Virus record (IMG/VR): IMGVR_UViG_3300045988_092906
Span: 1 to 16,031 of that record
DNA length: 16,031 bases
Reading direction: 5' to 3' (one strand)
DNA from: a virus
Shown: piece by piece, positions 1-16,031 of the stretch
Layout: the number at the start of each line of letters is the position of its first letter
Position numbering within the stretch: position 1 is the stretch's first letter
Notes under the pieces: generated by a model
What the model was told of the DNA's origin: nothing
Seen by the model: the letters and a program-made list of their open reading frames with translations, nothing else
Databases searched by the model: none
Program-made: the position numbers and the translations under genes

Positions 1-66
1 AAAAGGCTTACGTTATTCCCAATGAGAGCACGACACCCTTTTGATTAAAAAAGCACGAAAAAATAC

Positions 67-95
67 TTGACAAACGAACAAGCGTGTGGTATTAT
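67..95 (+). promoter_or_regulatory. Inward-reading sigma-A-type early promoter in ITR-L
   Basis: TTGACA (67-72), 17-nt spacer, TGgTATTAT (87-95, extended -10). It starts immediately after the ~66-nt segment shared with the buried terminus copy. Confidence 0.65.
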
Positions 96-165
96 AATTA
101 TAGAAACAAGGAAACCTAGTAAATATAAGGAGGGAAAAAAGATACTATGAAAAGGAGGAATAAAA

Positions 166-279
166 ATGAAGATTAAATATGACGAAAAAATATGGGATAG
201 CTTTGGTAAGGAACTTTGTGATATTATGAAGTCTAGCACTGTTGATGGTTTTATGTTAAAAAGGAGGTATAAAAAATGA
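166..279 (+). CDS. Small hypothetical early protein, 37 aa (MKIKYDEKIWDSFGKELCDIMKSSTVDGFMLKRRYKK); below the ORF-track size cutoff
   Basis: RBS AAAGGAGGA lies 7 nt upstream of the ATG at 166. The stop overlaps the next start (ATGA at 276-279), suggesting translational coupling. No recognisable family. Confidence 0.45.
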   Translation: MKIKYDEKIWDSFGKELCDIMKSSTVDGFMLKRRYKK

Positions 280-701
280 ACGAAGAAATTAATAGAGTTA
301 AAGTCGTTGTAATTAATTCTAATACAGGGCACATAGTTAGAAGTGAGGCGTTATACACAGACGAATCCTTATTAACAATAGTGCAGAGGTATAGCACTAA
401 AGATTCTATTGTTACGGCTTCAATAGATAATACTTGTTATTGTTTTTATATTAAAGATGAATTATATATATTTAGTACAAGTATTAGTGTAGAATTAATT
501 GAATTTTTTAAAGATGTGTTAGGGGGTTTATATGATAATGCTAGAGATAGTTTTCATATTCAATGGGGCAGAGTAGCAACATTATGTCAACAAATTAATG
601 ACGTAGACTATAGTAAATATGAGGTTATTTTAAATTCTATAGACAATATATGGGGAACAAGATATTATTCAAGATTTTTAAGGAGAGGTAAAAATGATTA
701 A
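276..701 (+). CDS. Hypothetical early protein, 141 aa (ITR copy 1)
   Basis: ORF with RBS AAAGGAGGT upstream. It overlaps the neighbouring genes at both ends. An identical copy lies at 15331-15756. No family recognised. Confidence 0.7.
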   Translation: MNEEINRVKVVVINSNTGHIVRSEALYTDESLLTIVQRYSTKDSIVTASIDNTCYCFYIKDELYIFSTSISVELIEFFKDVLGGLYDNARDSFHIQWGRVATLCQQINDVDYSKYEVILNSIDNIWGTRYYSRFLRRGKND

Positions 702-1158
702 ATACAGATTACATAATATCACAGATTTTGGGGTAGAAATACACGACTTTCACACTGAAAACTCACTAAACAACTACATAGCCTTATTTGTAGACGAACC
801 CTACTGGGTAGAAAATTTGTATACTAATAAAAACATTTATGTGGGTTTTGATGGAGAAGCCTATACCATTGATACTAAGGGAAATAAAGACTATATAGAG
901 ACATTTCAAAATCATAAAATCGATTCAGATAATGTTTCACGTGAAACATTGCATGAAACTCCTACAGAATGGATAACAAGACAAATACCTACAGAAGAAA
1001 AAGAGACATACACCAAATTAGAAAAAATATCATCTTTCTTAGGGGTCTTATCAGTCATAATCATGGCAACCTTTTTATTATATTTGTTCTTATCTTCTGT
1101 ATCATTTATAGCGGAACATTTCTCAGAGTTTACGTGGAAAGTGTTTAATATTTTATAA
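694..1158 (+). CDS. Hypothetical early protein, 154 aa, with a C-terminal transmembrane anchor (ITR copy 1)
   Basis: RBS AAGGAGAGG upstream and an 8-nt overlap with the previous ORF. There is a hydrophobic stretch ISSFLGVLSVIIMATFLLYLFLSSVSFI near the C-terminus. An identical copy lies at 14874-15338. It contains the 20-bp palindrome at 931-950 in frame (NVSRETL). Confidence 0.7.
   Translation: MIKYRLHNITDFGVEIHDFHTENSLNNYIALFVDEPYWVENLYTNKNIYVGFDGEAYTIDTKGNKDYIETFQNHKIDSDNVSRETLHETPTEWITRQIPTEEKETYTKLEKISSFLGVLSVIIMATFLLYLFLSSVSFIAEHFSEFTWKVFNIL
931..950. repeat. Copy of the conserved palindrome AATGTTTCACGTGAAACATT, inside a coding sequence
   Basis: Perfect 20-bp palindrome. The 18-bp core ATGTTTCACGTGAAACAT is identical to the copies at 8746, 9924, 10104, 11182 and 15083. 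Confidence 0.9.
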
Positions 1159-1170
1159 GGAGGAAAAAAT

Positions 1171-1212
1171 ATGGCAAAATTAACAAATGCGTTATTACGT
1201 TATTCCCAATGA
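1171..1212 (+). pseudogene. Truncated 5' fragment of the AbrB-like gene (MAKLTNALLRY + SQ*), created at the ITR junction
   Basis: The RBS plus the first 11 codons are identical to the start of the 14667-14861 gene. The frame then runs into the buried terminus copy and stops at TGA 1210-1212. Confidence 0.8.
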
Positions 1213-1254
1213 GACCACGACACCCTTTTGATTAAAAAAGCACGAAATAAATAC
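1195..1254 (+). repeat. Internal direct copy of the genome terminus (equals positions 8-66); candidate relic of the ancestral left end
   Basis: Aligned by eye. 1195-1247 equals 8-60 except C1215 vs G28. One extra T at 1248 follows, then AAATAC matches 61-66. Similarity ends where the terminus runs into the TTGACA promoter and the internal copy runs into the terminator. Confidence 0.85.
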
Positions 1255-1281
1255 CCCTCGTTTTTTCGAGGGGTATTTATT
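1246..1281. terminator. Bidirectional intrinsic terminator between the left-ITR operon (+) and the late operon (-)
   Basis: Perfect 15-bp stem AATAAATACCCCTCG / CGAGGGGTATTTATT with a TTTTTT loop. The A/T-rich arm ends give a U-rich tail in both directions. It lies between convergent genes ending at 1158/1212 and 1304. Confidence 0.75.
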
Positions 1282-1303
1282 AAATTTCTGCTACTAAATA
1301 TTG

Positions 1304-1990
1304 TTAGTATGTAATCATGTTATTTAATCTGCACCCAAAATAATTGTAAGGCGTAGAGGCGTTTGTATCATTAAAGACTACGTCACCATTAGTTTTTAGT
1401 CTGAATCCCTCAATTGCTAAGGTGCTTACAGCATTAGATTGGTCAACTACATTTCCAATAAAATCAACGTCTTTTGCAGGTGTAATATTTGGGATATTGA
1501 ATAAAACTCTTCTTGCTGAGCTACCACTTCCACCTAATACGGCGTTAAAAACAATAAGATGTGCTGTTCTATTAACACGGGCAATAACAGAGCCCGAATT
1601 GCCTGTAATTTCTTCCCACAAAGAAATATTATTGTTTAATTGTGCAATACTAGCTTGTGCGTCTTTTGCGTTATCATTTGCAACCGTTGCTGCTGCCTGT
1701 GCTTTTGAAATATTGCTATCTCTAGTTACGTTGCTAGAATTAATAGCGGAGACTGAGGATTGTAAATCGGAAATGTTCTTGCTATTTTGATTGGCTACTG
1801 TTGTTGCCTGTGTTGCTTTGGCTTCTGCGCTACCAGCTGTCTGATTAGCTGTTGTAGCTGTTTCTTGTACTTGATGAATACCTGCATCAATTTTAGACAT
1901 ATCAGAGTTATAATCTCCTAAATATGTCGGCTTGTCAGTACCAATGTACTGACTTAAATCATAGTAAGTTGTTTTGTTTGTTGAACTCAT
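1304..1990 (-). CDS. Tail fibre / receptor-binding protein, 228 aa
   Basis: Last gene of the late operon, with RBS AAGGAGGAG. The N-terminal YYDLSQYIGTDKPTYLGDYNSDMSKID motif is of the kind seen at N-termini of Firmicute phage fibres. An Ala/Gln/Asn/Ser-rich helical stalk is followed by a C-terminal globular part. Confidence 0.55.
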   Translation of the reverse strand: MSSTNKTTYYDLSQYIGTDKPTYLGDYNSDMSKIDAGIHQVQETATTANQTAGSAEAKATQATTVANQNSKNISDLQSSVSAINSSNVTRDSNISKAQAAATVANDNAKDAQASIAQLNNNISLWEEITGNSGSVIARVNRTAHLIVFNAVLGGSGSSARRVLFNIPNITPAKDVDFIGNVVDQSNAVSTLAIEGFRLKTNGDVVFNDTNASTPYNYFGCRLNNMITY

Positions 1991-2010
1991 TTTTGACTCC
2001 TCCTTAATAA

Positions 2011-2841
2011 TTATAATTTTAATGCTGTTTTAGCATTACTATCAAATGTGTAAGCGCTTAACGCTTTAGCTTCAAATCCCGATACTGTCAACAATAAAGC
2101 ATCAAATTCGCTTGTTGTGATAGGGTTGTTAAAGTGCAATTCTGCTAATTGATAGATAACATCTTGATAAAAGACATATTCGCCCGTAAACGGGTTGTTC
2201 ATGTATAAATTACTATCAACTCTAAATCTTTTTGCGCCGTATAAATCAAAATCTGTACAACTTAAAAGTAAATTATCAAACTCTGTGCAAGTTAAATTTA
2301 AAGAATCAAATTCAGTACAAGTTAAAGCATAATATCTTAGATTATCGTACATATCACCTAACGCTTGATTAAGGCTTGTATAATAACCTTTAACAGGGTT
2401 TAAAACTTGCATATTACTTGGAACAAAATTGTTAATATAATCATACAATTTTGCGATAGCAGAATCAATATATTCTCTTGTTTCAGTGTTTAACTGATAA
2501 ACGAGAATGTTTAATGTATTGATTCTACTAATTAAATCTTTTTGAATATTATCAATTTTCTTATCCAGTTCATCATCACGTTTATCCATATCATTTCTGA
2601 TATTTGCTTCTACTTCTGTGATATGTTTATAGATGTCTGCATTAAGACCGTCAACGTATTCTTTTAACTCTTTTACTTTTTTATCGGTGTACTGTTTATA
2701 TGCGTCTGTGAAACCATTAATTGCGTCAATACATTCATTGACTTTGTAATCAATATAGCACAAACATTCATAGTAACTCTGCTTATTGCTATATACACTT
2801 GGAACATCGCAACATATTAACGGTGTTAATTCTTTTGCCAT
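2011..2841 (-). CDS. Tail appendage/fibre protein, 276 aa, with a coiled-coil N-half and Cys-containing decapeptide repeats
   Basis: RBS AAGGAGGTG. It sits after the lower collar gene, as phi29 gp12 does. The N-terminal ~140 aa are charged and heptad-like. The repeats are LTCTEFDSLN/LTCTEFDNLL/LSCTDFDLYG, with a degenerate second block ITTSEFDALL/LTVSGFEAKA/LSAYTFDSNA. Confidence 0.5.
   Translation of the reverse strand: MAKELTPLICCDVPSVYSNKQSYYECLCYIDYKVNECIDAINGFTDAYKQYTDKKVKELKEYVDGLNADIYKHITEVEANIRNDMDKRDDELDKKIDNIQKDLISRINTLNILVYQLNTETREYIDSAIAKLYDYINNFVPSNMQVLNPVKGYYTSLNQALGDMYDNLRYYALTCTEFDSLNLTCTEFDNLLLSCTDFDLYGAKRFRVDSNLYMNNPFTGEYVFYQDVIYQLAELHFNNPITTSEFDALLLTVSGFEAKALSAYTFDSNAKTALKL
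2245..2334 (-). repeat. Three tandem 30-bp imperfect repeats encoding the fibre decapeptide repeats
   Basis: Plus-strand units start with ATCAAA at 2245, 2275 and 2305 (ATCAAAnTCnGTnCAAnTTAAA...). Confidence 0.8.
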
Positions 2842-2859
2842 TATATCACCTCCTTTTTT

Positions 2860-3567
2860 TTACCACACTTTTAGAAACAAATCTCTGCAAGCTTCTACAA
2901 GTTCTTTATTAATATTCTGTATTTGCTCACGATATTCTGCAATAGCTTCACTTGTTGATTTTCCTCTTAATCCTATCTCTTTTGTGTCTCTGTCTCTTTT
3001 GCTGTCTTTGTTGTCGTTTCCTGTATGTTTATTGTTTGCTGTTGTAGTCGTGTTATTGACAGTTTCGCCCCTACTCATAGCACTTGCGTAGTCTTGTGTA
3101 GCTACGGTGACTTGTGGATTGTCACTATCAATATTTTGGTAGTTTTGATTGTTTTTTACCTCGCTGTTTCCTGCATCTGTTGAGTTAGTTGTTGTTTTTT
3201 CATTTCCTTTTTCTGCTTCTGTGAATGTTACATATATATTTGTAAAAGGGTTATCGTTTTGAATTGCATTATACAGTTTTGTATAATATGGCGTCAATTC
3301 ATACATTTTTGCTATAAAAGCAGTTTTCCACATTCCTAGAGTTTCAAAACCAATATAATTATTCCAGTATCTTAACAAGAAATAGGTTTTAAAGGTGTAT
3401 AGGTCTTTTCTATCCTCTGAATAAAAAGGAAAATCAAAGTCAAAAAATTTGCTCTGTGTTTTATCGATTGTTCTTTGAACTGATAAGTCCATGCTCCACA
3501 ATTCCTGTTGCGGTATAAAACTTTCGCAAATGTCTTTTACAGTGGTAGTGTATTTACTCAATTTCAT
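2860..3567 (-). CDS. Lower collar protein (phi29 gp11 position), about 235 aa
   Basis: It lies directly downstream of the portal gene and overlaps it, and its size is similar to gp11. The central region is Asn/Thr-rich. The ORF-track start at 3570 is a GTG inside the RBS-like AGAGGGTG, so I prefer the ATG at 3567; the start remains uncertain. Confidence 0.5.
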   Translation of the reverse strand: MKLSKYTTTVKDICESFIPQQELWSMDLSVQRTIDKTQSKFFDFDFPFYSEDRKDLYTFKTYFLLRYWNNYIGFETLGMWKTAFIAKMYELTPYYTKLYNAIQNDNPFTNIYVTFTEAEKGNEKTTTNSTDAGNSEVKNNQNYQNIDSDNPQVTVATQDYASAMSRGETVNNTTTTANNKHTGNDNKDSKRDRDTKEIGLRGKSTSEAIAEYREQIQNINKELVEACRDLFLKVW

Positions 3568-4453
3568 CACCCTCTTTTCCTTTTTGCATATACTTGTCGG
3601 GGATATACCCGTTTAACATAGTAGGTAATTCACTATTGAAGTCCACCGACACATTAAGTCCCCATAATTTATTGATAGCTTTCGCGCATCTTCTTCTTAA
3701 TGTCAATCCAACATTTCGATTTGCTTCAACCTGTCCATTATTTCCTGCCGTTTCGCCAGTCACAAGGCGTTCACCTTTTTCTACTGGGTTGCTTTCATAC
3801 CCTAAAGAAGTTAATACTTGTGACCATAAATCCCTTAATTCCTGTTCGCATTTGTCTACTATGTAAGGCGCTCCCATGTTTAAGGCTTTAATGTCTTTCA
3901 AATTCAATGAATCTGAAACTTTAAGTACAGGCAAATAGTTATCGTACATTTCGCCTAATATTTCAAAGGACATTTTTTCATTATCAGAAGAAGAAAGTAC
4001 AACAGGTGTACGCTGTGCATACATATTAATACCTTTTGTTTTCCAAGTATTCGCCATAGCGTCTGCATACATTAATGCTTTGTAGTAGTATGGCATGGTT
4101 GAGTAATTGTTCCACAAGATACAACTATTTTCTTTCCCGTATTCTTCAATATAACCATTTGCCGTATAAGCAATTCTATCTTGAGGAATATTGTAAATAT
4201 CGGGCATACCCGAAAGTGTAACATTCATAAAAGCATACCCTGCAATATCATCCTTGATGAATACACCCAAACCACGCCAAAATAATGTTTGTTCAATGTA
4301 CATGGGCAATATTTCTTCGGGTAAGCCACGCCACTGGTATCTGTTTACAAATATATCGAAAATATCATAAAAATAAATAGATTTGATTATTTCAAAATCA
4401 TCTTTCATATTTTTATTTTTACATTTTTCAAAAACTCTTAAAGGGTTTCGCAC
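3554..4453 (-). CDS. Portal / upper collar connector (phi29 gp10-like), 299 aa
   Basis: Blocks match my recollection of phi29 gp10. These are YQWRGLP vs FEWENLP, NMYAQRTPVVL vs NQNAQKTPVLI, GAPYIVDK vs DAPYVVDK, EKGERLVTGE vs EKKERMVTDE, and INKLWGLNVSVDF vs INELYGLNVKVKF. GTG start at 4453 with RBS AAGGTGGTG. Confidence 0.85.
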   Translation of the reverse strand: MRNPLRVFEKCKNKNMKDDFEIIKSIYFYDIFDIFVNRYQWRGLPEEILPMYIEQTLFWRGLGVFIKDDIAGYAFMNVTLSGMPDIYNIPQDRIAYTANGYIEEYGKENSCILWNNYSTMPYYYKALMYADAMANTWKTKGINMYAQRTPVVLSSSDNEKMSFEILGEMYDNYLPVLKVSDSLNLKDIKALNMGAPYIVDKCEQELRDLWSQVLTSLGYESNPVEKGERLVTGETAGNNGQVEANRNVGLTLRRRCAKAINKLWGLNVSVDFNSELPTMLNGYIPDKYMQKGKEGDEIE

Positions 4454-4465
4454 GTTATCACCACC

Positions 4466-6082
4466 TTAATTATTTGACAATCCATAATTCCCTATGTCAT
4501 CAGTATGCCACAAAGTCACACCGTTGTCAAATATATTTCGCAATTTTTTTAATTGGTCTAAATCAATATCGCCTGTAAAACCACAATGTGATGTTTTTAC
4601 ATAATTCCATTGTGAACGAGAACGCAAATACGGTGTTGCAATTTTATTAATCGGATAACCAAATTGTTCGAAAAAACTATCTGCCATTTCAGCAAATTGT
4701 CTTTTGCACGACATTTCATAAAAATCAACACCACACTCTTTAATACCGGTCAACACATTTTCGGATAACGCTTTTCCATGTGTCACTCCTGCATTTCTCG
4801 CTCTGTCTGTCTGATTTGCTAACATTCCAAGAGCGTCCCAAAAAGCGTTCGTTGTTTTTCCTAATCCGTTAAGACCTCCTTGTAAACTTCCCCCAGCCAA
4901 TCCTGCTATTGCTGTTCCTGTTCCTATGGTAGCATCAACCGCTGTGTGAACTTGTGACAGAGCTATAGAACTTTTATTTTGCGCAAGCCATGCCCTGTAC
5001 GTATCAGAAGAAAAGGAACACATAGGAAAAGACGAGTTAATAAGCGCTTCATTCATTAGTCCGTGCCCTAATTCTTCGCGCGTCTTATAGTTTTTAGGCG
5101 CTGTGAGAACTTGTGGAAGTGTTGCAATTGTCCCGTAGCTGTCGAACTCAATCGACTTGTCTTGATTATAACTATATTCATACCTATAAATATGTGTGTT
5201 GCCTTGGTTATTATCAGCAAGACAAAATAACCACGGATAAGAATATAATTTTTTATTCTTCGGTTTATAACCCTCAAACACATTTTCGGATATCTGCATA
5301 CTTGTTATTTTTGGCTTAATTTCTTTTCCACCTAGTGCAAGCGTGCATAATTTTGGTGACATAAATAAACCTATAACAGCGTCTTGCGCTCCTTGGCTAT
5401 TATAATCTTGTAATAGCGTGTTTATTCCTTTTAGTCCATCATCTGTAGTAATATCATAATGGCCGATACTACCCCAACAGTACACTCCATTTTCCACTCT
5501 CCCCTCGAACCAACTTTGTTCCGTTGTACCACGTGTCACAAAAGCGCAACATTCAGTCGGTGTTAAGTCTAGTTTTTTATGCCGTGATACAATTGTCTCA
5601 CCTGTTTCGATATTAACAGGCGTTAAATTTACTCCTATCCCATCAGCACTTCTTGGGATATGATGATACTCTACAAAGCAAGGTTTAATATTCGCATCAT
5701 AAAAGTTATTCTGAAAAACATCAAGCGAAAAATTAATGCGTGTTGTTTTTTCAGACAACCATTCTATTGAATCGATAAAACAAAATACCCACTCGTTAGA
5801 AATGCCTGTATTCTGAAAAGCTAAATAATTGAGATTAAGTGCTTTCATTTCTGTGAACGGTACGCGAATGTCATAATTTCCTATTCGGATAGGCGCAAGA
5901 TGTGATAAATCAACCCCGTTGATATGTTTACGATAAGACTCTAAATGATTTAATAAGTCCTCTTTTGAGTTGTATAGTCTAACATGCTCGTATTCGTCCG
6001 ACCATGGCACTCCACTGTACAATCTTAATTTTGTTTCGGGGTTGCGTGGTGCAACCCCTCCCTGTGTTGGTAAATTTATCAT
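4466..6082 (-). CDS. Tail knob / distal tube protein (phi29 gp9-like), 538 aa
   Basis: The C-terminus FFEQFGYPINKIATPYLRSRSQWNYVKTSHCGFTGDIDLDQLKKLRNIFDNGVTLWHTDDIGNY closely parallels my recollection of gp9 ([37 protein letters not shown]...IFDNGITLWHTDNIGNY). The Gly/Ala-rich hydrophobic loop TGTAIAGLAGGSLQGGLNGLG resembles the gp9 membrane-active loop. Confidence 0.85.
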   Translation of the reverse strand: MINLPTQGGVAPRNPETKLRLYSGVPWSDEYEHVRLYNSKEDLLNHLESYRKHINGVDLSHLAPIRIGNYDIRVPFTEMKALNLNYLAFQNTGISNEWVFCFIDSIEWLSEKTTRINFSLDVFQNNFYDANIKPCFVEYHHIPRSADGIGVNLTPVNIETGETIVSRHKKLDLTPTECCAFVTRGTTEQSWFEGRVENGVYCWGSIGHYDITTDDGLKGINTLLQDYNSQGAQDAVIGLFMSPKLCTLALGGKEIKPKITSMQISENVFEGYKPKNKKLYSYPWLFCLADNNQGNTHIYRYEYSYNQDKSIEFDSYGTIATLPQVLTAPKNYKTREELGHGLMNEALINSSFPMCSFSSDTYRAWLAQNKSSIALSQVHTAVDATIGTGTAIAGLAGGSLQGGLNGLGKTTNAFWDALGMLANQTDRARNAGVTHGKALSENVLTGIKECGVDFYEMSCKRQFAEMADSFFEQFGYPINKIATPYLRSRSQWNYVKTSHCGFTGDIDLDQLKKLRNIFDNGVTLWHTDDIGNYGLSNN

Positions 6083-6103
6083 AGATATAAACCTCCATTA
6101 AAT

Positions 6104-7372
6104 TTACGCTTTTGTGAAACTTGCTGTTTTTGTGATAGTCTCGTTCGGTCTATAAATAGCTTTCAAGATAATAGTTCCTGTTTCGTCCGCTCCTGTATGA
6201 AGTAAATGTGTCCCTGGGATAACATAAGTCTTAGCTGACGTTGCACCGCTATCAACTTCCAATGTCACCAAATTCTGATGATATGTTCCCGTGCTACCTT
6301 TAACAGTAACTTCTACTTCCTGTGTCTGTCCTGCTGTGTATGTTCCTGCTGTTACTGACAAGGTTGGCGTTTCAACCACTGTGTCTGTGGTAAATACTCG
6401 AATTGGGTAGAACGGACTAGCACTGACCATTTCCACCTGTGTATAGAAGTAGTTCCATGAAAGCACATTTGCCAGTCTCTGGTCTGTCATTTCTTTGAAC
6501 TGGTCACGCACATTGAAGAATCGGACATCACACAAGACACCCTGAATAGCTGTGTTAGCGAATTTATCTACAATCACAGTCTGTACTTCCACTTCTGCTC
6601 TGTCCAAATGGAAAGCGTAAGCTAAAGCGTCAACACTGACCTGTGCGTTTACATTTGGGGTCGTTATCCAAATGAGATTGGACGGCATAGCGTGAGACGT
6701 TGCTCCTGCTGTGTTGTTTTCCGGTAATGGGAAACCAAACTCACCAACAGCTCTTTTTACTTCAATCAATAATTTTTTCGCTGTCGCTTCATCAACAACC
6801 GCGTCAACAGTCACTGCCGGAAGTACCTCTTTTTCATAACCAACATTAATCAAATCACGCATAGCAAGATACTCGTCCCAGTTCGCGGCTGTGATGGCAC
6901 TCTCCATTTTTGCCATAATCATGTCACGGATTCCATACTCGCTTGTAAAAGCTTTTCTCAAGTTGTCGTATGTCACAGTGACAGGGTACTGGATTTCAAG
7001 GTTTACATTGTGAAACACTGACATAATGTAGGATTGGTACTGCTGAAAGGCATACTTAAAGTCTGCCTGTGAGTCATACACGTGACCCTTGCACATATTT
7101 ACATATGTTTCCTCGTGTGTCTCCCCGTAACGCATTGGCTCTTTCTTGAAACGTGCTAACGGATTTCTCCACGCAATACTGTCTACGGTCTGCATACCAA
7201 TACGGTTAATTAATGACGGAACAATTTCGTTCCGAACAGGGGCAAAATTCAGAATGTTATCATAGACAGCCTGTAAATTGTCTGAGACTTCCACAGGCAA
7301 GTGGTTCTGAACCTCGAAAGAAAGCTCCTGTTTGACTGCTTTTAAAATGTTTTTATTTGTTGCGTCTGCCAT
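6104..7372 (-). CDS. Major capsid protein (phi29 gp8-like) with a C-terminal Ig-like domain, 422 aa
   Basis: [34 protein letters not shown] parallels gp8 [42 protein letters not shown] parallels LYWNYYYHV. The C-terminal ~90 aa are a Thr/Val/Gly-rich beta-type segment like the gp8 BIG2 domain. It follows the scaffold gene. Confidence 0.85.
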   Translation of the reverse strand: [422 protein letters not shown]

Positions 7373-7387
7373 TTGTTAAAACCTCCC

Positions 7388-7669
7388 TTATTCTGTTTTA
7401 CCATCAAAGTCCAAATCTTCGACAGTAATTTTTTCTTCTTTTTCGTCTTTCTTTTCTTCTCCGTCTGCATTAGTGGCGGATTCTTTCATGCGCTCTTTAA
7501 AGCGTTTTTTGTACTCACTTTCTAATTTCATATACTTGTCTTTCCATTCGCTGTCCGTTTCTCCACTTCTTTCGCTATCATAATTCTGTAAGAACTCAAT
7601 AGCGTCTCCGTGCTCCTCAACGTCTGCTACAGCGTCAATTAATTCGTTTAAAGCTTCATTAAAATCCAT
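7388..7669 (-). CDS. Scaffolding protein (phi29 gp7-like), 93 aa
   Basis: Small, acidic and helical, immediately upstream of the capsid gene. The C-terminal KITVEDLDFDGK resembles gp7 TITIEDLEAK. RBS AGGAGGAAT. Confidence 0.7.
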   Translation of the reverse strand: MDFNEALNELIDAVADVEEHGDAIEFLQNYDSERSGETDSEWKDKYMKLESEYKKRFKERMKESATNADGEEKKDEKEEKITVEDLDFDGKTE

Positions 7670-7711
7670 TCAGATTCCTCCTTTTTATTTATTACCCTTT
7701 TTACAGTTTCT

Positions 7712-7740
7712 ATTATATCACCATGGAAAGAAAAAGTAAA
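7712..7740 (-). promoter_or_regulatory. Candidate promoter for the structural (late) operon
   Basis: On the minus strand: TTTACT (7740-7735), 17-nt spacer, TGaTATAAT (7720-7712). It overlaps the tail-lysin stop codon, 43 nt upstream of the scaffold start. Confidence 0.45.
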
Positions 7741-8725: not shown

Positions 8726-8740
8726 TTCTTGTCACCTCAC

Positions 8741-8782
8741 AAAAAATGTTTCACGTGAAACATTTGTATTCACGTGAAACAC
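8741..8782 (-). terminator. Paired palindrome copies (full 8744-8765, degenerate 8769-8781) forming a hairpin plus U-tract after the endolysin gene
   Basis: Minus-strand RNA is GUGUUUCACGUG-13 nt-CACGUGAAACAU followed by UUUUU. That gives a 12-bp stem with one G-U pair. Alternatively it is two adjacent protein-binding sites. It lies 8 nt after the endolysin stop and directly before the tail-lysin RBS. Confidence 0.4.
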
Positions 8783-8789
8783 CTCATAA

Positions 8790-9641
8790 TTATTTTGTCG
8801 AATTTTTTTCGTACGTTTCTACGTCTGAACAAACCGCCTGCAAAATGCGTAAATCCCAAGGCGCTATATTATTGAATTCATAACAAGGTATATTGCGACC
8901 TGTACTGTCTAAATGAATCTTTTTTAAGATTTCAAGACACGCACCATCTTTAATGAGTCTGACTTTATCCCCATTGAACCAATACCAGTTACCACTTTCC
9001 GTATCTTTAAATAATGCATTCATACAATTAATACCCCCAATCATATTATTTATGATGTCATTAAATTCGCTTTTATATGTATAGTCTTTATACACATGGT
9101 TTACATCACATCTCCCGTTGATACCATCAACTCGCCCGTTACTGCTATACTGCCAAATATCAACGCCATTCATGCCTAATGAGTTTGAATATCGAGCAAT
9201 CCACAAATCATACCCCCATGTTTCGCCGATGTATTTCTCAAACCATGATTTACTGGCATAAATTCCTGCTTTATACCCATTAGTGTGCATCGCATCGCAA
9301 AAGCGCTTTGCGTTGTATTTTGCGACATATTGAGTGCCTTTTTCTTCGCTGTCAAAAAATACTGGTAGGGTAGGGTTATGTCCGTTTAGCAATCTAAGAC
9401 AGTGGTTAATCTCGCCCTCAATATTTGCTTTTGTTTTTGCGTATGAATAGAAATACACGCCATACGCTATAGACAGTCTTTCACATTCACGAACATTTCT
9501 TTCCCATTGTTCATCATCTTGTGATGTCTTATCTTGTCCATATCCGCATCTGATTATCACATAATCAACAGCGTTCTTTAACTTTTCAAAATCAACAACA
9601 CCATTGTGATAAGAAATATCAACAGCCTTTTTTACACACAT
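8790..9641 (-). CDS. Endolysin, GH25 muramidase N-domain plus an unassigned C-terminal (probably wall-binding) domain, 283 aa
   Basis: The N-terminus is typical of GH25 lysozymes: VDISYHNGVVDFEKLKNAVDYVIIRCGYG ... FDSEE ... LWIARY ... WQYSS. It follows the holin gene with a 1-nt TAATG overlap. Confidence 0.75.
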   Translation of the reverse strand: MCVKKAVDISYHNGVVDFEKLKNAVDYVIIRCGYGQDKTSQDDEQWERNVRECERLSIAYGVYFYSYAKTKANIEGEINHCLRLLNGHNPTLPVFFDSEEKGTQYVAKYNAKRFCDAMHTNGYKAGIYASKSWFEKYIGETWGYDLWIARYSNSLGMNGVDIWQYSSNGRVDGINGRCDVNHVYKDYTYKSEFNDIINNMIGGINCMNALFKDTESGNWYWFNGDKVRLIKDGACLEILKKIHLDSTGRNIPCYEFNNIAPWDLRILQAVCSDVETYEKNSTK

Positions 9642-9868
9642 TACTCTCCCTCCTTTTTCTGCTCAAATGTATCACAAATACGTTGAAGCGCAAGCGTGTT
9701 ATTGTTCAACGCTTCTGTAATATCTGCCATTTCCTGCTTATGTGCTTCATTCAGCTTGTCTAAGCGTTCATCGTTTTTATCTTCGCGATATTTCACGTAC
9801 CACATTGAAGCTATCGCAACAACTGTAGGAATGCCTAACGTGTTAATCATTGTCATGATTTCCTGCAT
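9641..9868 (-). CDS. Holin-like protein (BhlA/UviB-like architecture), 75 aa from the ATG at 9868
   Basis: One N-terminal TM segment (LGIPTVVAIASMWYV) is followed by a charged coiled-coil tail. It sits directly upstream of the endolysin and is coupled to it. RBS AAAGGAGGTGG precedes the ATG at 9868. The longer track ORF (to 9910) would run through the candidate promoter and has no RBS. Confidence 0.55.
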   Translation of the reverse strand: MQEIMTMINTLGIPTVVAIASMWYVKYREDKNDERLDKLNEAHKQEMADITEALNNNTLALQRICDTFEQKKEGE

Positions 9869-9888
9869 GATACCACCTCCTTTTTTAT

Positions 9889-9917
9889 ATAATAACACAT
9901 ATAAACACATTTGTAAA
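9889..9917 (-). promoter_or_regulatory. Candidate promoter of the lysis cassette
   Basis: On the minus strand: TTTACA (9917-9912), 17-nt spacer, TGtTATTAT (9897-9889). The holin RBS begins about 10 nt downstream of the -10, and the palindrome array abuts the -35. Confidence 0.5.
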
Positions 9918-9918
9918 T

Positions 9919-9956
9919 AAAAAATGTTTCACGTGAAACATTTTCACGTGAAACAT
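9919..9956 (-). terminator. Paired overlapping palindrome copies (24-bp perfect palindrome 9921-9944 plus partial 9942-9956) forming a hairpin plus U-tract
   Basis: Minus-strand RNA is AUGUUUCACGUG-AAAAUGUUU-CACGUGAAACAU followed by UUUUUAUUU. That gives a 12-bp perfect stem. It is positioned to end the transcript from the 10076-10104 promoter, and could equally be a tandem operator upstream of the holin promoter. Confidence 0.45.
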
Positions 9957-10069
9957 AATGCACGTTACAAAATAATCAAATCAAAGGGGACGCAAAACCA
10001 AAAATTGATATCAGACTACTTGTCTATGTGCGTGTATATCAATTACAATGTTCGTATTATTTTGGGTGC
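9957..10069 (-). ncRNA. Candidate structured non-coding RNA (pRNA-like?) next to the packaging ATPase gene
   Basis: A consensus promoter lies immediately upstream, and there is no RBS-preceded ORF. The predicted 5' end pairs with the 3' end. Plus-strand 10066-10070 GTGCA pairs with 9959-9963 TGCAC, and 10056-10064 ATTATTTTG pairs with 9968-9976 CAAAATAAT. There is an internal 9-bp hairpin (10003-10011 with 10036-10044). A terminator-like element follows at 9919-9956. Confidence 0.4.
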
Positions 10070-10075
10070 AATATT

Positions 10076-10104
10076 ATTATATCAAAGATATCTTAAATTG
10101 TCAA
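10076..10104 (-). promoter_or_regulatory. Consensus sigma-A-type promoter driving the ORF-free region
   Basis: On the minus strand: TTGACA (10104-10099), exactly 17 nt, TGaTATAAT (10084-10076). This is the best consensus match in the window. The -35 overlaps the palindrome at 10103-10122 by 2 nt. Confidence 0.7.
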
Positions 10105-10122
10105 TGTTTCACGTGAAACATT
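10103..10122. repeat. Copy of the conserved palindrome AATGTTTCACGTGAAACATT
   Basis: Perfect 20-bp palindrome. It overlaps the ATPase stop codon (10121-10123) on one side and the -35 of the downstream promoter on the other. Confidence 0.9.
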
Positions 10123-11167
10123 AAAAAGATATAACATCAAATATCATATCCTTACATTCTAAATTTTCAAATAATAGTAATCCTCTATTAAAATATTCGC
10201 GTAACATTGCTACAATATAATGCGTTGAGTTTACACGAATTGCCGTATTATCTATTACGTCGTTTTTTGTAAAACATATTCGTGTAGGGAAACTTTCGTC
10301 TGCCCCTGTTGCTATATACATAAAAGTGTCATATTTTCTTGCGTTATACATTTTCTCGTTAAATCTGATTGTACAAATATAACGTGATTGTCCTGTTGGT
10401 TTTCCAATTAAACAATCATTATCATTTAGATATTTATTTTCGCTCGCATATTCGTTATAAGATGCGCCTTGAAATGCTCGTGCAATGCCACTTTCCTTAT
10501 AGGCTGTTGAAGCATTTTCATTATAGGTTCGCTCAAATACCCAACCATCACCGCGCAATATTTTAGTGTTATATTTTAACATTTTATTGATGCCAAATAC
10601 ACTATAGTATGGGTTTAACAACGAGACGGTATTTGAAGCCATATATAGCATAACTCTACGATGTTGCTTCCCGTGTCCTGCACTAATAGTCGTAAGCAAA
10701 GATAAAAGCTTATTTACCTCATTCGTTAAATATACGTTATCCTCATCTTGATATTCGTCAAAAAATACAGAACGAATATTTACGAACAACCCACGCATTT
10801 TTTTATATTTTCTCGCAACGGATAAGGCTAAACAATATCCGCATGGCTCTTCGTTTAGAAATAGTTGAATCAATGAACCATTCATCAAACTCTTTTCAGT
10901 CATAACATACCCGTCAAATTTTTCAGATATATCGCCAAAATATGTGTCGGCACAATTCTTCATATCAACTACATTTCTATATAGATATATAAATTGGTTT
11001 TCGGGTCTATATTTATCTTTCAAAAAATCGGACACTTGTCTGCACTTGATAGAATAACTTTTGCCTGCCGTTCTATTCCCGTCAACAATATAAATATCGG
11101 GAATATTCCCATTTTTATCTTTTAAAGTTAATAATCTATCACAATGATAATAGCCATCATTTTTCAT
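10121..11167 (-). CDS. DNA packaging (encapsidation) ATPase, phi29 gp16-like, 348 aa from the ATG at 11167
   Basis: Walker A is GNRTAGKSY (gp16 GARGIGKSY) and Walker B is VFFDEY (gp16 IVFDEF). QFIYLYR parallels QFIYVRR, LTNEVNKLLSLL parallels IPNEVSALLNLM, and ASNTVSLLNPYY parallels LSNAVSVVNPYF. RBS TAGGAGGTG lies upstream of the ATG at 11167. Confidence 0.85.
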   Translation of the reverse strand: MKNDGYYHCDRLLTLKDKNGNIPDIYIVDGNRTAGKSYSIKCRQVSDFLKDKYRPENQFIYLYRNVVDMKNCADTYFGDISEKFDGYVMTEKSLMNGSLIQLFLNEEPCGYCLALSVARKYKKMRGLFVNIRSVFFDEYQDEDNVYLTNEVNKLLSLLTTISAGHGKQHRRVMLYMASNTVSLLNPYYSVFGINKMLKYNTKILRGDGWVFERTYNENASTAYKESGIARAFQGASYNEYASENKYLNDNDCLIGKPTGQSRYICTIRFNEKMYNARKYDTFMYIATGADESFPTRICFTKNDVIDNTAIRVNSTHYIVAMLREYFNRGLLLFENLECKDMIFDVISF

Positions 11168-12054: not shown

Positions 12055-13941
12055 TTATATTATAATTTTTTTATCTTTTTGTTCATGGATATTAAAGTCT
12101 TTATTTCTTAATACAATACCACCTTTCACGCGCTCTGCTTTCAAATTACAAGTTTCCATACTAAGACCAGTGGATAATTCTGAGATATCTCTCCCATCTT
12201 CCACAAACTTTCTTTTCGCTTGACTACTCATTCCACAAGCTTTTATATCAAGATAAGGTTCACAAGGCACATGATTCTCTTCAACAATATGTTCTGCATA
12301 AGTCTTTTGCCTTTCATAATAAGCAAAATCAAATGTACTTTCACATTTCCAACAACAAAAATTAGTAGGGTGTTCCACAACTTTATTCGCTTTATCAAGA
12401 CCTATCAAATGAATAGAATCAGTGTCGGCATAGCAAAATCGGTCATAATTAGCCATTGCGTGACGAATTGTAAAATTCATGGCATATGATGTAATAGCAC
12501 TCCCGATAGGGATATACCCTACTTTCTTATTATGCTCTTCATGTAGAATAAATCTAATAATTCCATCTTCATCAAGATAAGGCTCTTTATACGAGGAATT
12601 ATCAGACATAGCAAATTTGCCATAAAGATTATTTAAAAAGAGTTTAGCTTTTTGTCTTTTAAAGCCTTTTGATGTTCTTTTTTCTTCTCCGTATTTATTT
12701 ATATAATCGTCAAAAAACCCTTGTCTCGCGTAGAACCACACGTAATCATATATAACCAAATCAAAAATATCATAAGTTTCTTGAAATAATTCCCAATCAG
12801 TACAAGTCATTGTTATAGTAATATTAGTATCATGCATTTGTCCATCAATATCACGATAATATCTATAATATTCACCCTTATATCTGACATTAGAACTATA
12901 TAAATTTTCATTCGCCTTATATAATGCGTTATGTCTAATATGTAACCATGGAAATGCCCCTGCTTTTAACTGAAATCTACAATTGAAGCGGATAAAAAAA
13001 TATTTATTAGTAGAGCTTATAAGTTCATTAGGTGGCGCTCCCCTATGATATTCGCCATGTCCAAATGGGTATTTATTCCCACTAATACTATGCATCATAG
13101 ACGGGTACAAAGAGTTTACATCATATACCAAACCATTGCTCACCACCATGTGTGCATATCTTGGATTGACATAGCACCAACCACCGTGATATGATTTATG
13201 AATATAATCCCACTGATTCCACGATTCTGTAATAGATTCGTCAAGATAATCTTCTCTAATATCGGGGAATAACTTATCATATTGTTTACCATCATAAAAA
13301 CCTTTAAATTCTGATAAACAACATGAGCCTATGGTTAATTTATCATGCTTTTCATTAAACATCATTTCTAATGCTTCTTTTAAAACTAATACGTCATTTT
13401 CAATATATTTCTTTTCATTTTCTGATATCTCACAATAAGCATATCTTTCGCCCTCATAATTCATATCAAGCTTTTGGTGCTTCGTCCCAAATGATTTCCC
13501 GATATTTTTTAATGATGATGGCATAAGCTTTAAAGAATTTCGGATTTCTAAAAAAGTCTTATTCCATTTTAATTTAAGCCAATACCACGACCCCATATCT
13601 GATATACATGTTTGAAATTCTTTTGACCTCATTTCCTTGTCTTTACAATGTACCCATGTCCACCCCTCTTTTAACAGAAAATCTACTATAAAAGAACCGT
13701 CAAAAGCTAAGTTATGAAAATATAATATATTATTACCTTTCATAGTTAAAAATCTATTTAAAAAATCTCTTATCGAATGTGTGATTGTTACTGTCTCAGT
13801 ATCATCATATAAAGCCACGTCAGCGCCCGACCAAACTTCTGTAGTATCTTGTTTTTTATGATTTTCTTGCTCTACTTTTTCGCCCCATACTGTTGTCTCA
13901 AAATCACAAGCCCAAAAAGTGATATTCTTTTTACGTGGCAT
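12055..13941 (-). CDS. Protein-primed family-B DNA polymerase (phi29 gp2-like), 628 aa
   Basis: All signature motifs are visible: ExoI ACDFETT, ExoII HNLAFDGSFI, SLKLMP (S/TLx2h), ExoIII YIENDVLVL, motif A VYDVNSLYPS, motif B KAKLFLNNLYGKF, motif C YADTDSIHL and KxY RQKTYAE. It is colinear with phi29 DNAP as I recall it. I prefer the ATG at 13941 (RBS AGAGGTG 6 nt upstream) over the GTG at 13950, which lies within that RBS. Confidence 0.95.
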   Translation of the reverse strand: MPRKKNITFWACDFETTVWGEKVEQENHKKQDTTEVWSGADVALYDDTETVTITHSIRDFLNRFLTMKGNNILYFHNLAFDGSFIVDFLLKEGWTWVHCKDKEMRSKEFQTCISDMGSWYWLKLKWNKTFLEIRNSLKLMPSSLKNIGKSFGTKHQKLDMNYEGERYAYCEISENEKKYIENDVLVLKEALEMMFNEKHDKLTIGSCCLSEFKGFYDGKQYDKLFPDIREDYLDESITESWNQWDYIHKSYHGGWCYVNPRYAHMVVSNGLVYDVNSLYPSMMHSISGNKYPFGHGEYHRGAPPNELISSTNKYFFIRFNCRFQLKAGAFPWLHIRHNALYKANENLYSSNVRYKGEYYRYYRDIDGQMHDTNITITMTCTDWELFQETYDIFDLVIYDYVWFYARQGFFDDYINKYGEEKRTSKGFKRQKAKLFLNNLYGKFAMSDNSSYKEPYLDEDGIIRFILHEEHNKKVGYIPIGSAITSYAMNFTIRHAMANYDRFCYADTDSIHLIGLDKANKVVEHPTNFCCWKCESTFDFAYYERQKTYAEHIVEENHVPCEPYLDIKACGMSSQAKRKFVEDGRDISELSTGLSMETCNLKAERVKGGIVLRNKDFNIHEQKDKKIII

Positions 13942-13955
13942 TATAATCACCTCTT

Positions 13956-14663: not shown

Positions 14664-14666
14664 GGT

Positions 14667-14861
14667 TTAATTGCCCTCCTTTTGTACTTTTCTTAACAAT
14701 AAGCCATGTGGAACACGGGTATACTCAATATAATCCCCCGCATGAATATCTAAGTCTTTGATTGCTTCTTTTGGGAGCATGACACGGGCGGTATAACCAC
14801 CCGAGCCACTTTTCGTGAACATTACTTTATAACGTAATAACGCATTTGTTAATTTTGCCAT
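14667..14861 (-). CDS. AbrB/SpoVT/MazE-type (looped-hinge helix) DNA-binding protein, 64 aa
   Basis: The pattern ARVMLPKEAIKDLDIHAGDYIEYTRVPHGLLLRKV fits the SpoVT-AbrB domain signature (xRVxIPKExRxxLgIxxGDxvEi...). RBS AAGGAGGAAAAAATATG. The first 33 nt lie inside the ITR. Confidence 0.6.
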   Translation of the reverse strand: MAKLTNALLRYKVMFTKSGSGGYTARVMLPKEAIKDLDIHAGDYIEYTRVPHGLLLRKVQKEGN

Positions 14862-14873
14862 ATTTTTTCCTCC

Positions 14874-15338
14874 TTATAAAATATTAAACACTTTCCACGT
14901 AAACTCTGAGAAATGTTCCGCTATAAATGATACAGAAGATAAGAACAAATATAATAAAAAGGTTGCCATGATTATGACTGATAAGACCCCTAAGAAAGAT
15001 GATATTTTTTCTAATTTGGTGTATGTCTCTTTTTCTTCTGTAGGTATTTGTCTTGTTATCCATTCTGTAGGAGTTTCATGCAATGTTTCACGTGAAACAT
15101 TATCTGAATCGATTTTATGATTTTGAAATGTCTCTATATAGTCTTTATTTCCCTTAGTATCAATGGTATAGGCTTCTCCATCAAAACCCACATAAATGTT
15201 TTTATTAGTATACAAATTTTCTACCCAGTAGGGTTCGTCTACAAATAAGGCTATGTAGTTGTTTAGTGAGTTTTCAGTGTGAAAGTCGTGTATTTCTACC
15301 CCAAAATCTGTGATATTATGTAATCTGTATTTAATCAT
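14874..15338 (-). CDS. Hypothetical early protein, 154 aa, with a C-terminal TM anchor (ITR copy 2)
   Basis: Translation identical to 694-1158. Confidence 0.7.
   Translation of the reverse strand: MIKYRLHNITDFGVEIHDFHTENSLNNYIALFVDEPYWVENLYTNKNIYVGFDGEAYTIDTKGNKDYIETFQNHKIDSDNVSRETLHETPTEWITRQIPTEEKETYTKLEKISSFLGVLSVIIMATFLLYLFLSSVSFIAEHFSEFTWKVFNIL
15082..15101. repeat. Copy of the conserved palindrome AATGTTTCACGTGAAACATT (mirror of 931-950)
   Basis: Read directly from the sequence: CAATGTTTCACGTGAAACATTATC. Confidence 0.9.
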
Positions 15339-15756
15339 TTTTACCTCTCCTTAAAAATCTTGAATAATATCTTGTTCCCCATATATTGTCTATAGAATTT
15401 AAAATAACCTCATATTTACTATAGTCTACGTCATTAATTTGTTGACATAATGTTGCTACTCTGCCCCATTGAATATGAAAACTATCTCTAGCATTATCAT
15501 ATAAACCCCCTAACACATCTTTAAAAAATTCAATTAATTCTACACTAATACTTGTACTAAATATATATAATTCATCTTTAATATAAAAACAATAACAAGT
15601 ATTATCTATTGAAGCCGTAACAATAGAATCTTTAGTGCTATACCTCTGCACTATTGTTAATAAGGATTCGTCTGTGTATAACGCCTCACTTCTAACTATG
15701 TGCCCTGTATTAGAATTAATTACAACGACTTTAACTCTATTAATTTCTTCGTTCAT
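15331..15756 (-). CDS. Hypothetical early protein, 141 aa (ITR copy 2)
   Basis: Translation identical to 276-701. Confidence 0.7.
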   Translation of the reverse strand: MNEEINRVKVVVINSNTGHIVRSEALYTDESLLTIVQRYSTKDSIVTASIDNTCYCFYIKDELYIFSTSISVELIEFFKDVLGGLYDNARDSFHIQWGRVATLCQQINDVDYSKYEVILNSIDNIWGTRYYSRFLRRGKND

Positions 15757-15866
15757 TTTTTATACCTCCTTTTTAACATAAAACCATCAACAGTGCTAGA
15801 CTTCATAATATCACAAAGTTCCTTACCAAAGCTATCCCATATTTTTTCGTCATATTTAATCTTCAT
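15753..15866 (-). CDS. Small hypothetical early protein, 37 aa (ITR copy 2)
   Basis: Mirror of 166-279 within the ITR. Confidence 0.45.
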   Translation of the reverse strand: MKIKYDEKIWDSFGKELCDIMKSSTVDGFMLKRRYKK

Positions 15867-15936
15867 TTTTATTCCTCCTTTTCATAGTATCTTTTTTCCC
15901 TCCTTATATTTACTAGGTTTCCTTGTTTCTATAATT

Positions 15937-15965
15937 ATAATACCACACGCTTGTTCGTTTGTCAA
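15937..15965 (-). promoter_or_regulatory. Inward-reading sigma-A-type early promoter in ITR-R, heading the replication operon
   Basis: Mirror of 67-95: TTGACA (15965-15960), 17 nt, TGgTATTAT. I found no other promoter before the polymerase gene. Confidence 0.65.
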
Positions 15966-16031
15966 GTATTTTTTCGTGCTTTTTTAATCAAAAGGGTGTC
16001 GTGCTCTCATTGGGAATAACGTAAGCCTTTT

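Follow-up and report, generated by a model that had tools for sequence, protein, structure and literature searches.

How may a linear phage genome come to carry the same genes, in inverted orientation, at both of its ends? The question is raised by the IMG/VR virus record IMGVR_UViG_3300045988_092906, analysed here over its whole length of 16,031 nucleotides (nt) and called the window in what follows. The terminal 1203 base pairs (bp) of one end of the window are found inverted at the other. The window is very likely the complete linear genome of a human-gut podophage of the phi29 type, replicating by protein priming, and represents a genuine variant, to all appearance heritable, of a genome type already known. 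Judging from the sequences compared below, an ancestor with an inverted terminal repeat (ITR) of about 65 nt had the 1.2 kb of its early end copied, inverted, onto its late end, where 7 nt were lost. With good confidence, the observations as a whole are explained by a complete genome in which this inverted copying occurred through mispriming of a 3' end. The term early denotes here the end on the side of the DNA polymerase (DNAP) gene, and late the end on the side of the structural genes.

A gene-carrying repeat at both ends

The arms of the repeat, as defined by a repeat finder, lie at 1-1203 and 14829-16031; they are 100% complementary over 1203 nt, are separated by 13625 nt, and together account for 2406 of the 16031 bases (15.0%). 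The ends had already been described as exact inverted copies of this length, making up about 15% of the genome, in a sequence-only reading of the window, and the figures are the same. Identity of the arms is no independent evidence, as an assembler that reuses one repeat node makes them identical by construction. The same reading had placed a consensus promoter and three open reading frames (ORFs) in each copy, and these were likewise found. The promoter is sigma70-like (TTGACA-17-TATTAT with an upstream TG, score 11/12), and orf37, orf141 and orf154, presumably early genes, each lie behind an AGGAGG-type ribosome-binding site. Two features come in addition to those reported earlier. Each arm also holds the first 33 nt of a fourth gene, AbrB/MazE-like, inside which the repeat ends, and a relic of an old terminus is found at 1195-1253.

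The cargo of the arms is largely private to the clade. The orf141 family is restricted to it; the listed homologues bear no functional names and are mostly encoded by clade contigs of 14-16 kb. Neither Pfam nor PHROG gave a match for orf141, and its AlphaFold2 (AF2) model, predicted with a local distance difference score (pLDDT) of 89, found no fold match in PDB and BFVD, the best fold hit being an uncharacterised 75-aa podophage protein (E = 0.013). For orf154, which has no Pfam or PHROG match either, the model predicts a small N-terminal domain and a C-terminal transmembrane helix; the helix (residues 106-153) is confident, and the overall pLDDT of 64 makes the model too weak for a fold search. 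There are 787 orf154 homologues, most on contigs of 14-16 kb, and a functional name is given to none of the 120 best listed. The product of orf37 aligns over 30 aa, at 93-97% identity, to 99-aa ORFs of the relatives L012, L028, L036 and L064, and orf37 is the remnant of the 99-aa ORF of these closest relatives.

The early region of the window is about 400 nt shorter than those of L012, L036 and L064, the AbrB gene starting at 1171 rather than at about 1574. The leader at 121-170 resembles the first ribosome-binding site fused to the tail of a deleted upstream gene. As a speculation, a loss of about 400 nt would halve the packaging cost of the duplication, and may have been selected for this reason.

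Length of the repeat among relatives

Two IMG/VR locus sets were merged to obtain 55 near-complete contigs of relatives. In those with both termini present the ITR measures 40-156 nt, and two layouts are found. In one, an ITR of about 62-66 nt is directly followed, at the late end, by a terminator hairpin. In the other, an ITR of about 110-156 nt includes the promoter and the leader, and beyond it the late end carries different small genes that face inward. ITRs of the nearest database relatives span about 116-129 nt. The ITR of the window, with its 1203 bp and three complete genes, is about eight times as long as the longest found among close relatives, and is exceptional in the clade. Values reported for the broader group are 6-16 bp for Bacillus phi29-like phages (PMC6266182), 25-30 bp for Clostridium perfringens phages (PMC3362512), and at least 81 to over 100 bp for Rountreeviridae, where the repeats are called long (PMC9045211). 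According to their annotations, the ITRs of Cp-1 (236 bp) and asccphi28 (577 bp) contain no coding sequence (CDS). The window ITR is twice the longest verified value in the group, that of asccphi28.

The comparison with related public genomes, a course proposed by the sequence-only reading, makes the window ITR an outlier in its clade, and the view that a long, gene-carrying ITR is real and atypical holds against both the relatives and the 6-577 bp of published or annotated genomes. That reading was right in regarding the ITRs of the group as mostly very short and in quoting 236 bp for Cp-1, but its upper bound of a few hundred bp was too low, as asccphi28 moves the ceiling to at least 577 bp. 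Early promoters are present at both ends, as it had remarked; this alone is not unusual, because the 110-156-nt ITRs of many clade members hold the promoter, and so does that of Cp-1.

The junctions in other assemblies

Other assemblies of the phage were located by exact protein-sequence look-up. In ERZ920071 (run ERR1018289, MEGAHIT k127) a contig of 13879 nt corresponds to the unique part of 13625 nt flanked on either side by exactly 127 nt of repeat. The contig ends are identical for 127 nt and then diverge exactly at the boundary seen in the window, from which the contig differs at 1 of 10914 bases. ERZ1745023 (SPAdes) includes a 3931-nt contig which matches window 1-3931, has the same terminus and spans 1203/1204, and a 988-nt contig which begins 55 nt (equal to k) inside the repeat, on the AbrB side. 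The k-mer coverage is 71.7 for the contig formed by the repeat and 2.7 kb of unique sequence, and 51.2 for the unique contig. The resulting ratio, 1.40, is to be compared with expected values of 1.31 for a double depth of the 1203 nt, and 1.0 otherwise. In ERZ27260280 (MEGAHIT k119) a 1261-nt contig is identical to window 5-1203 and stops exactly at 1203.

Three assemblies obtained from other samples (MEGAHIT k127, MEGAHIT k119 and SPAdes k55) hence break or branch exactly at 1203 and 14829. Moreover, exact orf154 is found on no contig longer than 5 kb in any of the four assemblies (4/4) that feature a contig of 10-20 kb carrying the terminal protein (TP) gene, although 12 nt separate orf154 from the AbrB gene. 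The reads themselves must contain the junction, because a de Bruijn graph assembler cannot join sequences through an overlap of 9 nt, and a join made by the assembler was discarded as impossible on this ground.

Short contigs (0.9-1.7 kb) hosting orf154 homologues were considered as possible repeat nodes of other long-ITR phages. The three fetched all continue into AbrB and TP, and are ordinary fragments.

A relic of the old terminus and the direction of copying

Terminal bases 8-63 recur at 1195-1250 (56 nt, 96% identity, repeat finder). In a BLAST comparison the match extends from 8-66 against 1195 to about 1254, with 96.7% identity over an alignment of 60 columns including one gap. It is only at the left arm that the recurring sequence spans the inner edge. 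At least 12 relatives have its homologue at a distance of exactly 7 nt from their late contig end, and the old terminus is therefore placed at 1188. The arm and the relic have in common the 9-nt sequence TTACGTTAT, which within the ITR corresponds to codons 9-11 of the AbrB-like gene. The window contains four occurrences of this 9-mer, where chance would give 0.34.

The ancestral layout is found in a sister phage, L164 (ENA ERZ28657525, 15123 nt), whose fibre-like protein is 89% identical to that of the window. The physical end of L164 is AGAGGGC followed by TTACGTTATTCCC... (also written AGAGGGC followed by TTACGTTATTCCCAATGA...). Past the terminal repeat, the same CCCCTCG/CGAGGGG hairpin and the same gene stop are encountered, and the whole region is colinear with window 1188-1310. 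The hairpin, which terminates the structural-gene operon and is called on the minus strand only, probably also stops plus-strand transcription coming from the left arm, preventing antisense transcription of the structural genes.

The AbrB-like ORF is whole on the right, and is cut after codon 11 on the left. There, the first 11 codons lie in the ITR, and the frame then enters the relic. The order orf141-orf154-AbrB-TP-DNAP is observed at the polymerase end in all of the approximately 55 relatives. Copying went from the early to the late end, because AbrB is intact only on the right, the relic is found only in the left arm, and this gene order marks the early end in relatives. The opposite direction was ruled out by the first two of these observations.

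A proposed mechanism for the growth of the repeat

The ancestor had a layout that persists in sister phages, with an ITR of about 65 nt, serving as origin, long genes on one strand, and an early promoter at the DNAP end only; at its late end, the terminal repeat was directly followed by the terminator hairpin. Replication of the phi29 type releases displaced full-length single strands. In these, the 3' terminus of the late end (...ATAACGTAA plus 7 nt) normally pairs with the terminal repeat at the 5' end of its own strand, but could anneal instead to a chance 9-nt decoy, TTACGTTAT, located in the AbrB gene of the same strand. The 7 unpaired terminal nt would form a flap to be trimmed by the proofreading exonuclease of the polymerase, and extension to the 5' end of the template would add 1194 nt. 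The new 3' end, an exact complement of the early terminus, would constitute a working origin, and the next protein-primed round would fix a duplex of 16031 bp with an ITR of 1203 bp. Annealing between two molecules would yield the same product; within one strand, the intermediate would be an illegitimate panhandle. In the present genome, the early promoter, orf37, orf141 and orf154 are duplicated at the late end, from where they are transcribed inward.

We infer that the copying was done in this manner, by 3'-end mispriming and polymerase extension, either intrastrand or between molecules, and the features of the product fit the class. The new arm repeats the other end in inverted orientation right up to the exact terminus, the 9-nt match lies 7 nt from the old end, and the old terminal repeat has been left internal. 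In vitro, more than 85% of the chimeras formed by phi29 DNA polymerase are inverted, and at more than 70% of the junctions a 3' end had primed at 2-21 nt of complementarity, mostly in the same molecule (PMC1855051). The precedent is relevant because the polymerase encoded by the window is a homologue of the phi29 enzyme. A second relic junction was spotted within the first ~180 nt at both contig ends of another genome (L057 and L079, IMGVR_UViG_3300045988_052618). The inverted repeat of L057 ends at GAAGAAGAAAAAATAC, and the late side continues into TTGACAAATAATCGGGTGTGTGGTATTATAA, the promoter part of an older ITR; the repeat arm and the ancestral promoter relic share 10 nt, GAAAAAATAC.

Several points weigh against this account. 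The case is built on assembled contigs, and the argument from coverage on two of them. The junctions were seen per sample, not strictly on one molecule or on every molecule, and the full identity of the arms may have been imposed by the assembler. The product alone cannot separate mispriming by the polymerase from microhomology-mediated joining by the host. The terminal protein has no homology-based identification, and the first four bases differ within one lineage, being AAAA in the window and AGAG in ERZ27260280. In relatives, other long repeats are hinted at only by truncated contigs, and no second complete example turned up.

That one arm is physically absent, having been created by the assembler or as an in vitro chimera, for instance during multiple displacement amplification (MDA), is scarcely credible. 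Fully identical arms are what an assembler reusing one repeat node would deliver, but 9 nt are too short for a de Bruijn join. Chimeras made by phi29 polymerase in MDA are typically inverted, with 2-21 nt of microhomology, which is the form of this junction; random MDA chimeras are yet unique events, not expected to recur identically across samples, and the junction, or the branch point at 1203, is present in three further assemblies from other samples and assemblers, one of which shows a single base difference from the window over 10.9 kb. Neither IMG/VR nor the JGI metagenome contigs contain the exact junction string, as an artefact would have it; the confinement of orf154 to contigs of at most 5 kb, in all four assemblies with a long TP contig, argues the other way. 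As the junction recurs across samples and assemblers, an artefact of assembly or amplification is rejected. Very unlikely, too, is that the long-ITR molecule is a recurrent by-product, or a defective subpopulation, of a short-ITR phage, and not a heritable, packaged genome. The coverage ratio of 1.40 fits the presence of both arms on most molecules. Two intact origins and all the core genes are present, and the length of 16031 bp falls within the range of clade contigs (14133-16058 bp), so that the molecule should replicate and be packaged. A by-product would nonetheless find favour in that a fixed decoy site would regenerate the same junction repeatedly and bulk metagenomes include intracellular replicating DNA; it can also be reasoned that a genome end makes no branch in the graph, which would render co-existing short-ITR molecules invisible.

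The junction could also stem from the repair of double-strand breaks by the host, microhomology-mediated end joining or illegitimate recombination having joined an early-end fragment, inverted, to the late end, between two phage genomes. A microhomology of 9 nt and the loss of 7 terminal nt are a signature of this process as well; the repeat boundaries of L010 and L046, set at the conserved ribosome-binding-site sequence AAGGAGGAA, resemble short-homology recombination, and the end at which small genes lie varies from genome to genome. Host joining needs, however, a well-placed break in a second genome, removal of the protein-capped end, and ligation, whereas mispriming needs only phage replication intermediates and the enzyme, and regenerates a perfect terminus. 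In addition, only 7 nt separate the junction from the former physical 3' end, which is what priming by that very end would give. The position of the junction and the perfect terminus at the new end make host joining the less likely process, and we regard it as unlikely; mispriming of a 3' end is the explanation retained.

The genome termini

Contigs from about 25 of the 55 relatives start or finish within a few bases of the window ends, with the sequence of window 1-66. Their terminal ~65 nt are 89-95% identical to window 1-66 over the 50-67 nt aligned. In L007 and L050 an Illumina adapter directly abuts the first terminal base (AGAGGGCTT...), as would be seen at a physical end of the DNA. The termini are presumably protein-capped. 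A circular or hairpin-ended topology was ruled out, since relatives end at the same base, some of them with adapters, and the gene set is that of a protein-primed genome.

The first four bases form a doubled dinucleotide in all of the 29 termini (AGAG in 22, ATAT in 4, GTGT in 1, AAAA at both window ends), with covariation between positions 1 and 3 and between positions 2 and 4. The contig of ERZ27260280, which belongs to the same lineage as the window, features AGAG in place of AAAA in an otherwise identical repeat (L155 58-61). Sliding-back or jumping-back, as known in protein-primed initiation, requires terminal reiteration (PMC5175343), and the pattern suggests that synthesis initiates at base 3 or 4 of the template and then jumps back by two bases.

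Some contigs extend beyond the true terminus. In ERZ27260280, contig k119_60694 carries 57 unrelated nt outside it (L155 1-57), and the IMG/VR contig L044 has GACAGAGCATGG outside the true terminus at both ends (1-12 at one). Remnants of Illumina adapters are found at the late ends of L007 and L050.

Genes at opposite ends in the clade

Small ORFs, encoding products of 99, 106 and 63 aa, as well as orf154, occupy the late end of certain genomes and the early end of others, with 94-100% identity. The comparison involved the late ends of L014, L021, L053, L054, L056 and L060, and the early ends of L064, L020, L037, L056 and L032. The 99-aa ORF has a late position in L014 and an early one in L064, the 106-aa ORF a late one in L021 and L054 and an early one in L020 and L056; orf154 is early except in L060, where it is late. 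To judge from these sequences, genes move between the two genome ends in the clade.

Contigs L010, L014, L046, L053 and L057 begin and end with the same mid-gene sequence, of 77, 99 or 119 nt, lengths which equal the k of the assembler. The repeat boundaries are marked by ribosome-binding-site sequences in L010, L046, L014 and L053, and by a relic in L057. These k-length ends suggest further long inverted repeats in the five genomes, which are not counted as complete examples. Together with the genes found at either end, they fit a terminal repeat that has expanded repeatedly and then lost one of its copies.

Gene content of the window

The features discussed are collected in Table 1. Every long gene, from 1304 to 14861, is encoded by the minus strand, and the phi29-type morphogenesis module (connector gp10, tail knob gp9, capsid gp8, gp16 ATPase) was recognised by Pfam. 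The polymerase matches the phi29 enzyme (1XHX) with E = 6.3e-73 over residues 33-620, that is, nearly over the full length. Interpretation of the window as a whole phi29-like linear genome is borne out by the core genes, by the polymerase match, and by ends shared with the contig ends of about 25 relatives. In the core gene set proposed from the sequence alone, DNAP, gp16 and the structural homologues stand; the TP is a candidate by position only, as the 235-aa product had no match in Pfam, PHROGs, PDB sequences and a phage database. The fibre-like protein at 1304-1990 had none in Pfam and PHROG.

A megablast search of the whole window against a phage collection gave no nucleotide match. The nearest isolates are the Clostridium symbiosum phages CS229P1-3, with a polymerase identity of 46%, the value for phi29 being 33%. 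Some 70 close relatives in IMG/VR have polymerases 88-94% identical, and relatives deposited in GenBank and ENA carry human faecal or gut sample labels.

The gp16 reading frame defined mechanically spans 10121-11365 on the minus strand (414 aa, GTG start), and the public gene call encodes 372 aa. Both probably overrun the true start. An ATG at 11167 is preferred because a terminator-like hairpin (11238-11214), a palindrome (11200-11181) and a ribosome-binding site precede it.

Table 1. Features of the 16,031-nt window, listed by position
Feature	Position	Strand	Evidence or remark
Window	1..16031	linear	IMG/VR virus record IMGVR_UViG_3300045988_092906
Left ITR arm, derived copy added at late end	1..1203	+	Reverse complement of 14829-16031
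Terminal sequence, presumed protein-priming origin	1..66	+	Mirror 15966-16031; starts AAAA GGCTTACGTTATTCCC
Early promoter, left arm	67..95	+	Mirror 15937-15965 (-); conserved in relatives
orf37, 37 aa	166..279	+	Mirror 15753-15866 (-)
orf141, 141 aa	276..701	+	Mirror 15331-15756 (-)
orf154, 154 aa	694..1158	+	Mirror 14874-15338 (-)
Truncated AbrB/MazE-like copy, 13 codons, MAKLTNALLRYSQ followed by stop	1171..1212	+	Read from sequence
9-nt junction microhomology TTACGTTAT	1195..1203	+	Mirror 14829-14837
Relic of ancestral late-end terminal repeat	1195..1253	+	Implied old terminus 1188
Hairpin terminator of structural-gene operon	1246..1281	.	15-pair stem and T tail; called on minus strand only
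Structural (late), lysis and packaging genes	1304..11167	-	Pfam and PHROG matches
Fibre-like protein	1304-1990	-	Label from position after collar-like ORFs
ORF in structural block	2011-2841	-	
ORF in structural block	2860-3570	-	
Connector (gp10)	3554-4453	-	PF05352, 1.4e-49
Tail knob (gp9, C-terminal domain)	4466-6082	-	PF20934, 2.4e-28
Major capsid protein (gp8 type, Phi29_MCP)	6104-7372	-	PF25622, 4.7e-77
ORF in structural block	7388-7669	-	
Tail lysozyme	7718-8725	-	Pfam/PHROG
GH25 lysin	8790-9641	-	Pfam/PHROG
Holin-like protein	9641-9910	-	Pfam/PHROG
gp16 packaging ATPase	10121-11167	-	PF05894, 1.5e-29
Protein-primed family B DNA polymerase	12055..13950	-	PF03175, 4.3e-50 (organellar/viral type B)
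Terminal protein candidate, 235 aa	13956..14663	-	Position only, directly upstream of polymerase
Intact AbrB/MazE-like gene, 64 aa	14667..14861	-	PF04014, 7.3e-6
Right ITR arm, source copy at early end	14829..16031	-	Conserved gene order at early end in ~55 relatives

A candidate structured RNA and a set of palindromes

A non-coding stretch of about 115-145 nt (9925-10069, minus strand) separates the genes for the gp16 ATPase and the holin-like protein. It is preceded by the best promoter in the genome (10104-10076, minus strand; TTGACA-17-TATAAT, 12/12) and closed by a terminator hairpin (9956-9924, minus strand). The stretch folds at -40.3 kcal/mol (z = -4.65), is 88% conserved over 54 genomes, and includes seven covarying pairs (for example UA in 44 against CG in 9, and GC in 35 against AU in 14). 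A search of the window for Rfam packaging RNA (pRNA) gave no match at E <= 1. On the strength of fold and covariation, the stretch is a candidate small structured RNA, possibly the packaging RNA of the clade.

A perfect 20-nt palindrome, AATGTTTCACGTGAAACATT, occurs six times in the window, at 931-950, 8745-8764, 9923-9942, 10103-10122, 11181-11200 and 15082-15101. It is found in all of the 55 genomes scanned, with five copies in 42, four in 11 and three in one; six are found only in the window, the sixth copy being due to the duplication of the ITR. Positions are syntenic in the seven genomes inspected (7/7), and one copy lies inside orf154. Two copies abut or overlap the -35 region of the strongest minus-strand promoters. 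The palindromes look like operators for a phage regulator, and the AbrB-like protein is a candidate binder. In the window, the gp16 gene is bracketed by two palindromes (10103-11200). According to the annotation of CS229P1 and CS229P2, gp16 is the sole gene on the opposite strand (L001 5796-6830; L002 9493-10527), and the gp16 cassette may undergo inversion.

Comparison with known systems

The window shares with the phi29-like podophages (Salasmaviridae and allies, CS229P1-3 being the nearest) a small linear genome with ITRs, and genes for a protein-primed family B polymerase, connector, tail knob, capsid, gp16 and tail lysozyme. It differs from them in having the long genes on one strand, an ITR of 1203 bp with three CDSs, and no Rfam pRNA match. 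The ITRs of asccphi28 (577 bp) and Cp-1 (236 bp) are also long for the group and contain promoters, and Cp-1 similarly features inward early promoters and small ORFs at both ends. In these two phages, in contrast, no CDS is annotated in the ITR and the genes at each end are different. The ITR of the window has at least double their length, and gives second copies of three whole genes and of the first part of a fourth.

Repair of adenovirus ITRs through panhandles, and mutants with an embedded ITR, were reportedly described in the 1980s by Stow, by Hay and colleagues, and by Haj-Ahmad and Graham. There too, a displaced strand with pairing ends is said to be extended from its 3' end on the other end, giving viable genomes with the old repeat inside. 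The adenovirus molecules were, by these accounts, engineered or selected in the laboratory and paired true ITR copies, whereas the window is natural and would have used a chance 9-nt match located 1.2 kb from the end; and the ITR was repaired in the former, and grew in the latter.

Terminal repeats of poxviruses and of Streptomyces linear replicons are variable and gene-carrying, and those of the kalilo plasmid measure 1.3 kb. In these systems, as in the clade of the window, the inner repeat boundary moves, and genes become duplicated and pass from one end to the other. Their scale is much greater, and poxviruses have hairpin ends and lack homology in replication proteins.

Chimeras formed by phi29 polymerase during MDA resemble the window in the inverted junction, in the freed 3' end that primes at 2-21 nt in the same molecule, and in the use of a homologous polymerase (PMC1855051). 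They are one-off products obtained in vitro, whereas the junction in the window is inherited, is found in several samples, and is placed at a genome end, where it creates an origin.

Implications

Public contigs of such phages routinely consist of the unique part plus k repeat bases at each end. An apparent ITR of length k (77, 99, 119 or 127 nt, L152 and L156 being among the cases) may be mistaken for the true length of the repeat, and completeness tools which score such repeats would misjudge both ITR and genome length.

In protein-primed genomes, including phages, adenoviruses, linear plasmids and Polintons, the ITR is needed for replication, and its natural lengthening has been mostly inferred so far. 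Of interest here, more than gene dosage, is a preserved junction that documents the lengthening of an ITR in such a genome. The junction keeps the old terminus, the microhomology and the cut gene, and a sister genome represents the prior state, which allows the event to be reconstructed base by base.

Growth and shrinkage of ITRs may even be a regular evolutionary engine in this abundant clade, the strand-displacing polymerase mispriming displaced 3' ends at short matches, a later deletion removing one of the copies, and early genes shuttling in this way between the ends. The idea is tentative, and we rate it at somewhat less than an even chance. If true, the window would be a duplicated intermediate caught intact, the only complete one found. 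Moreover, it would test in nature whether the two ends of a phi29-type phage have to differ for its DNA to be packaged and ejected with polarity. Phage phi29 packages and ejects its DNA with fixed polarity. With ends identical for 1.2 kb, the phage described here would either need no end-specific sequence in this region, or have lost polarity.

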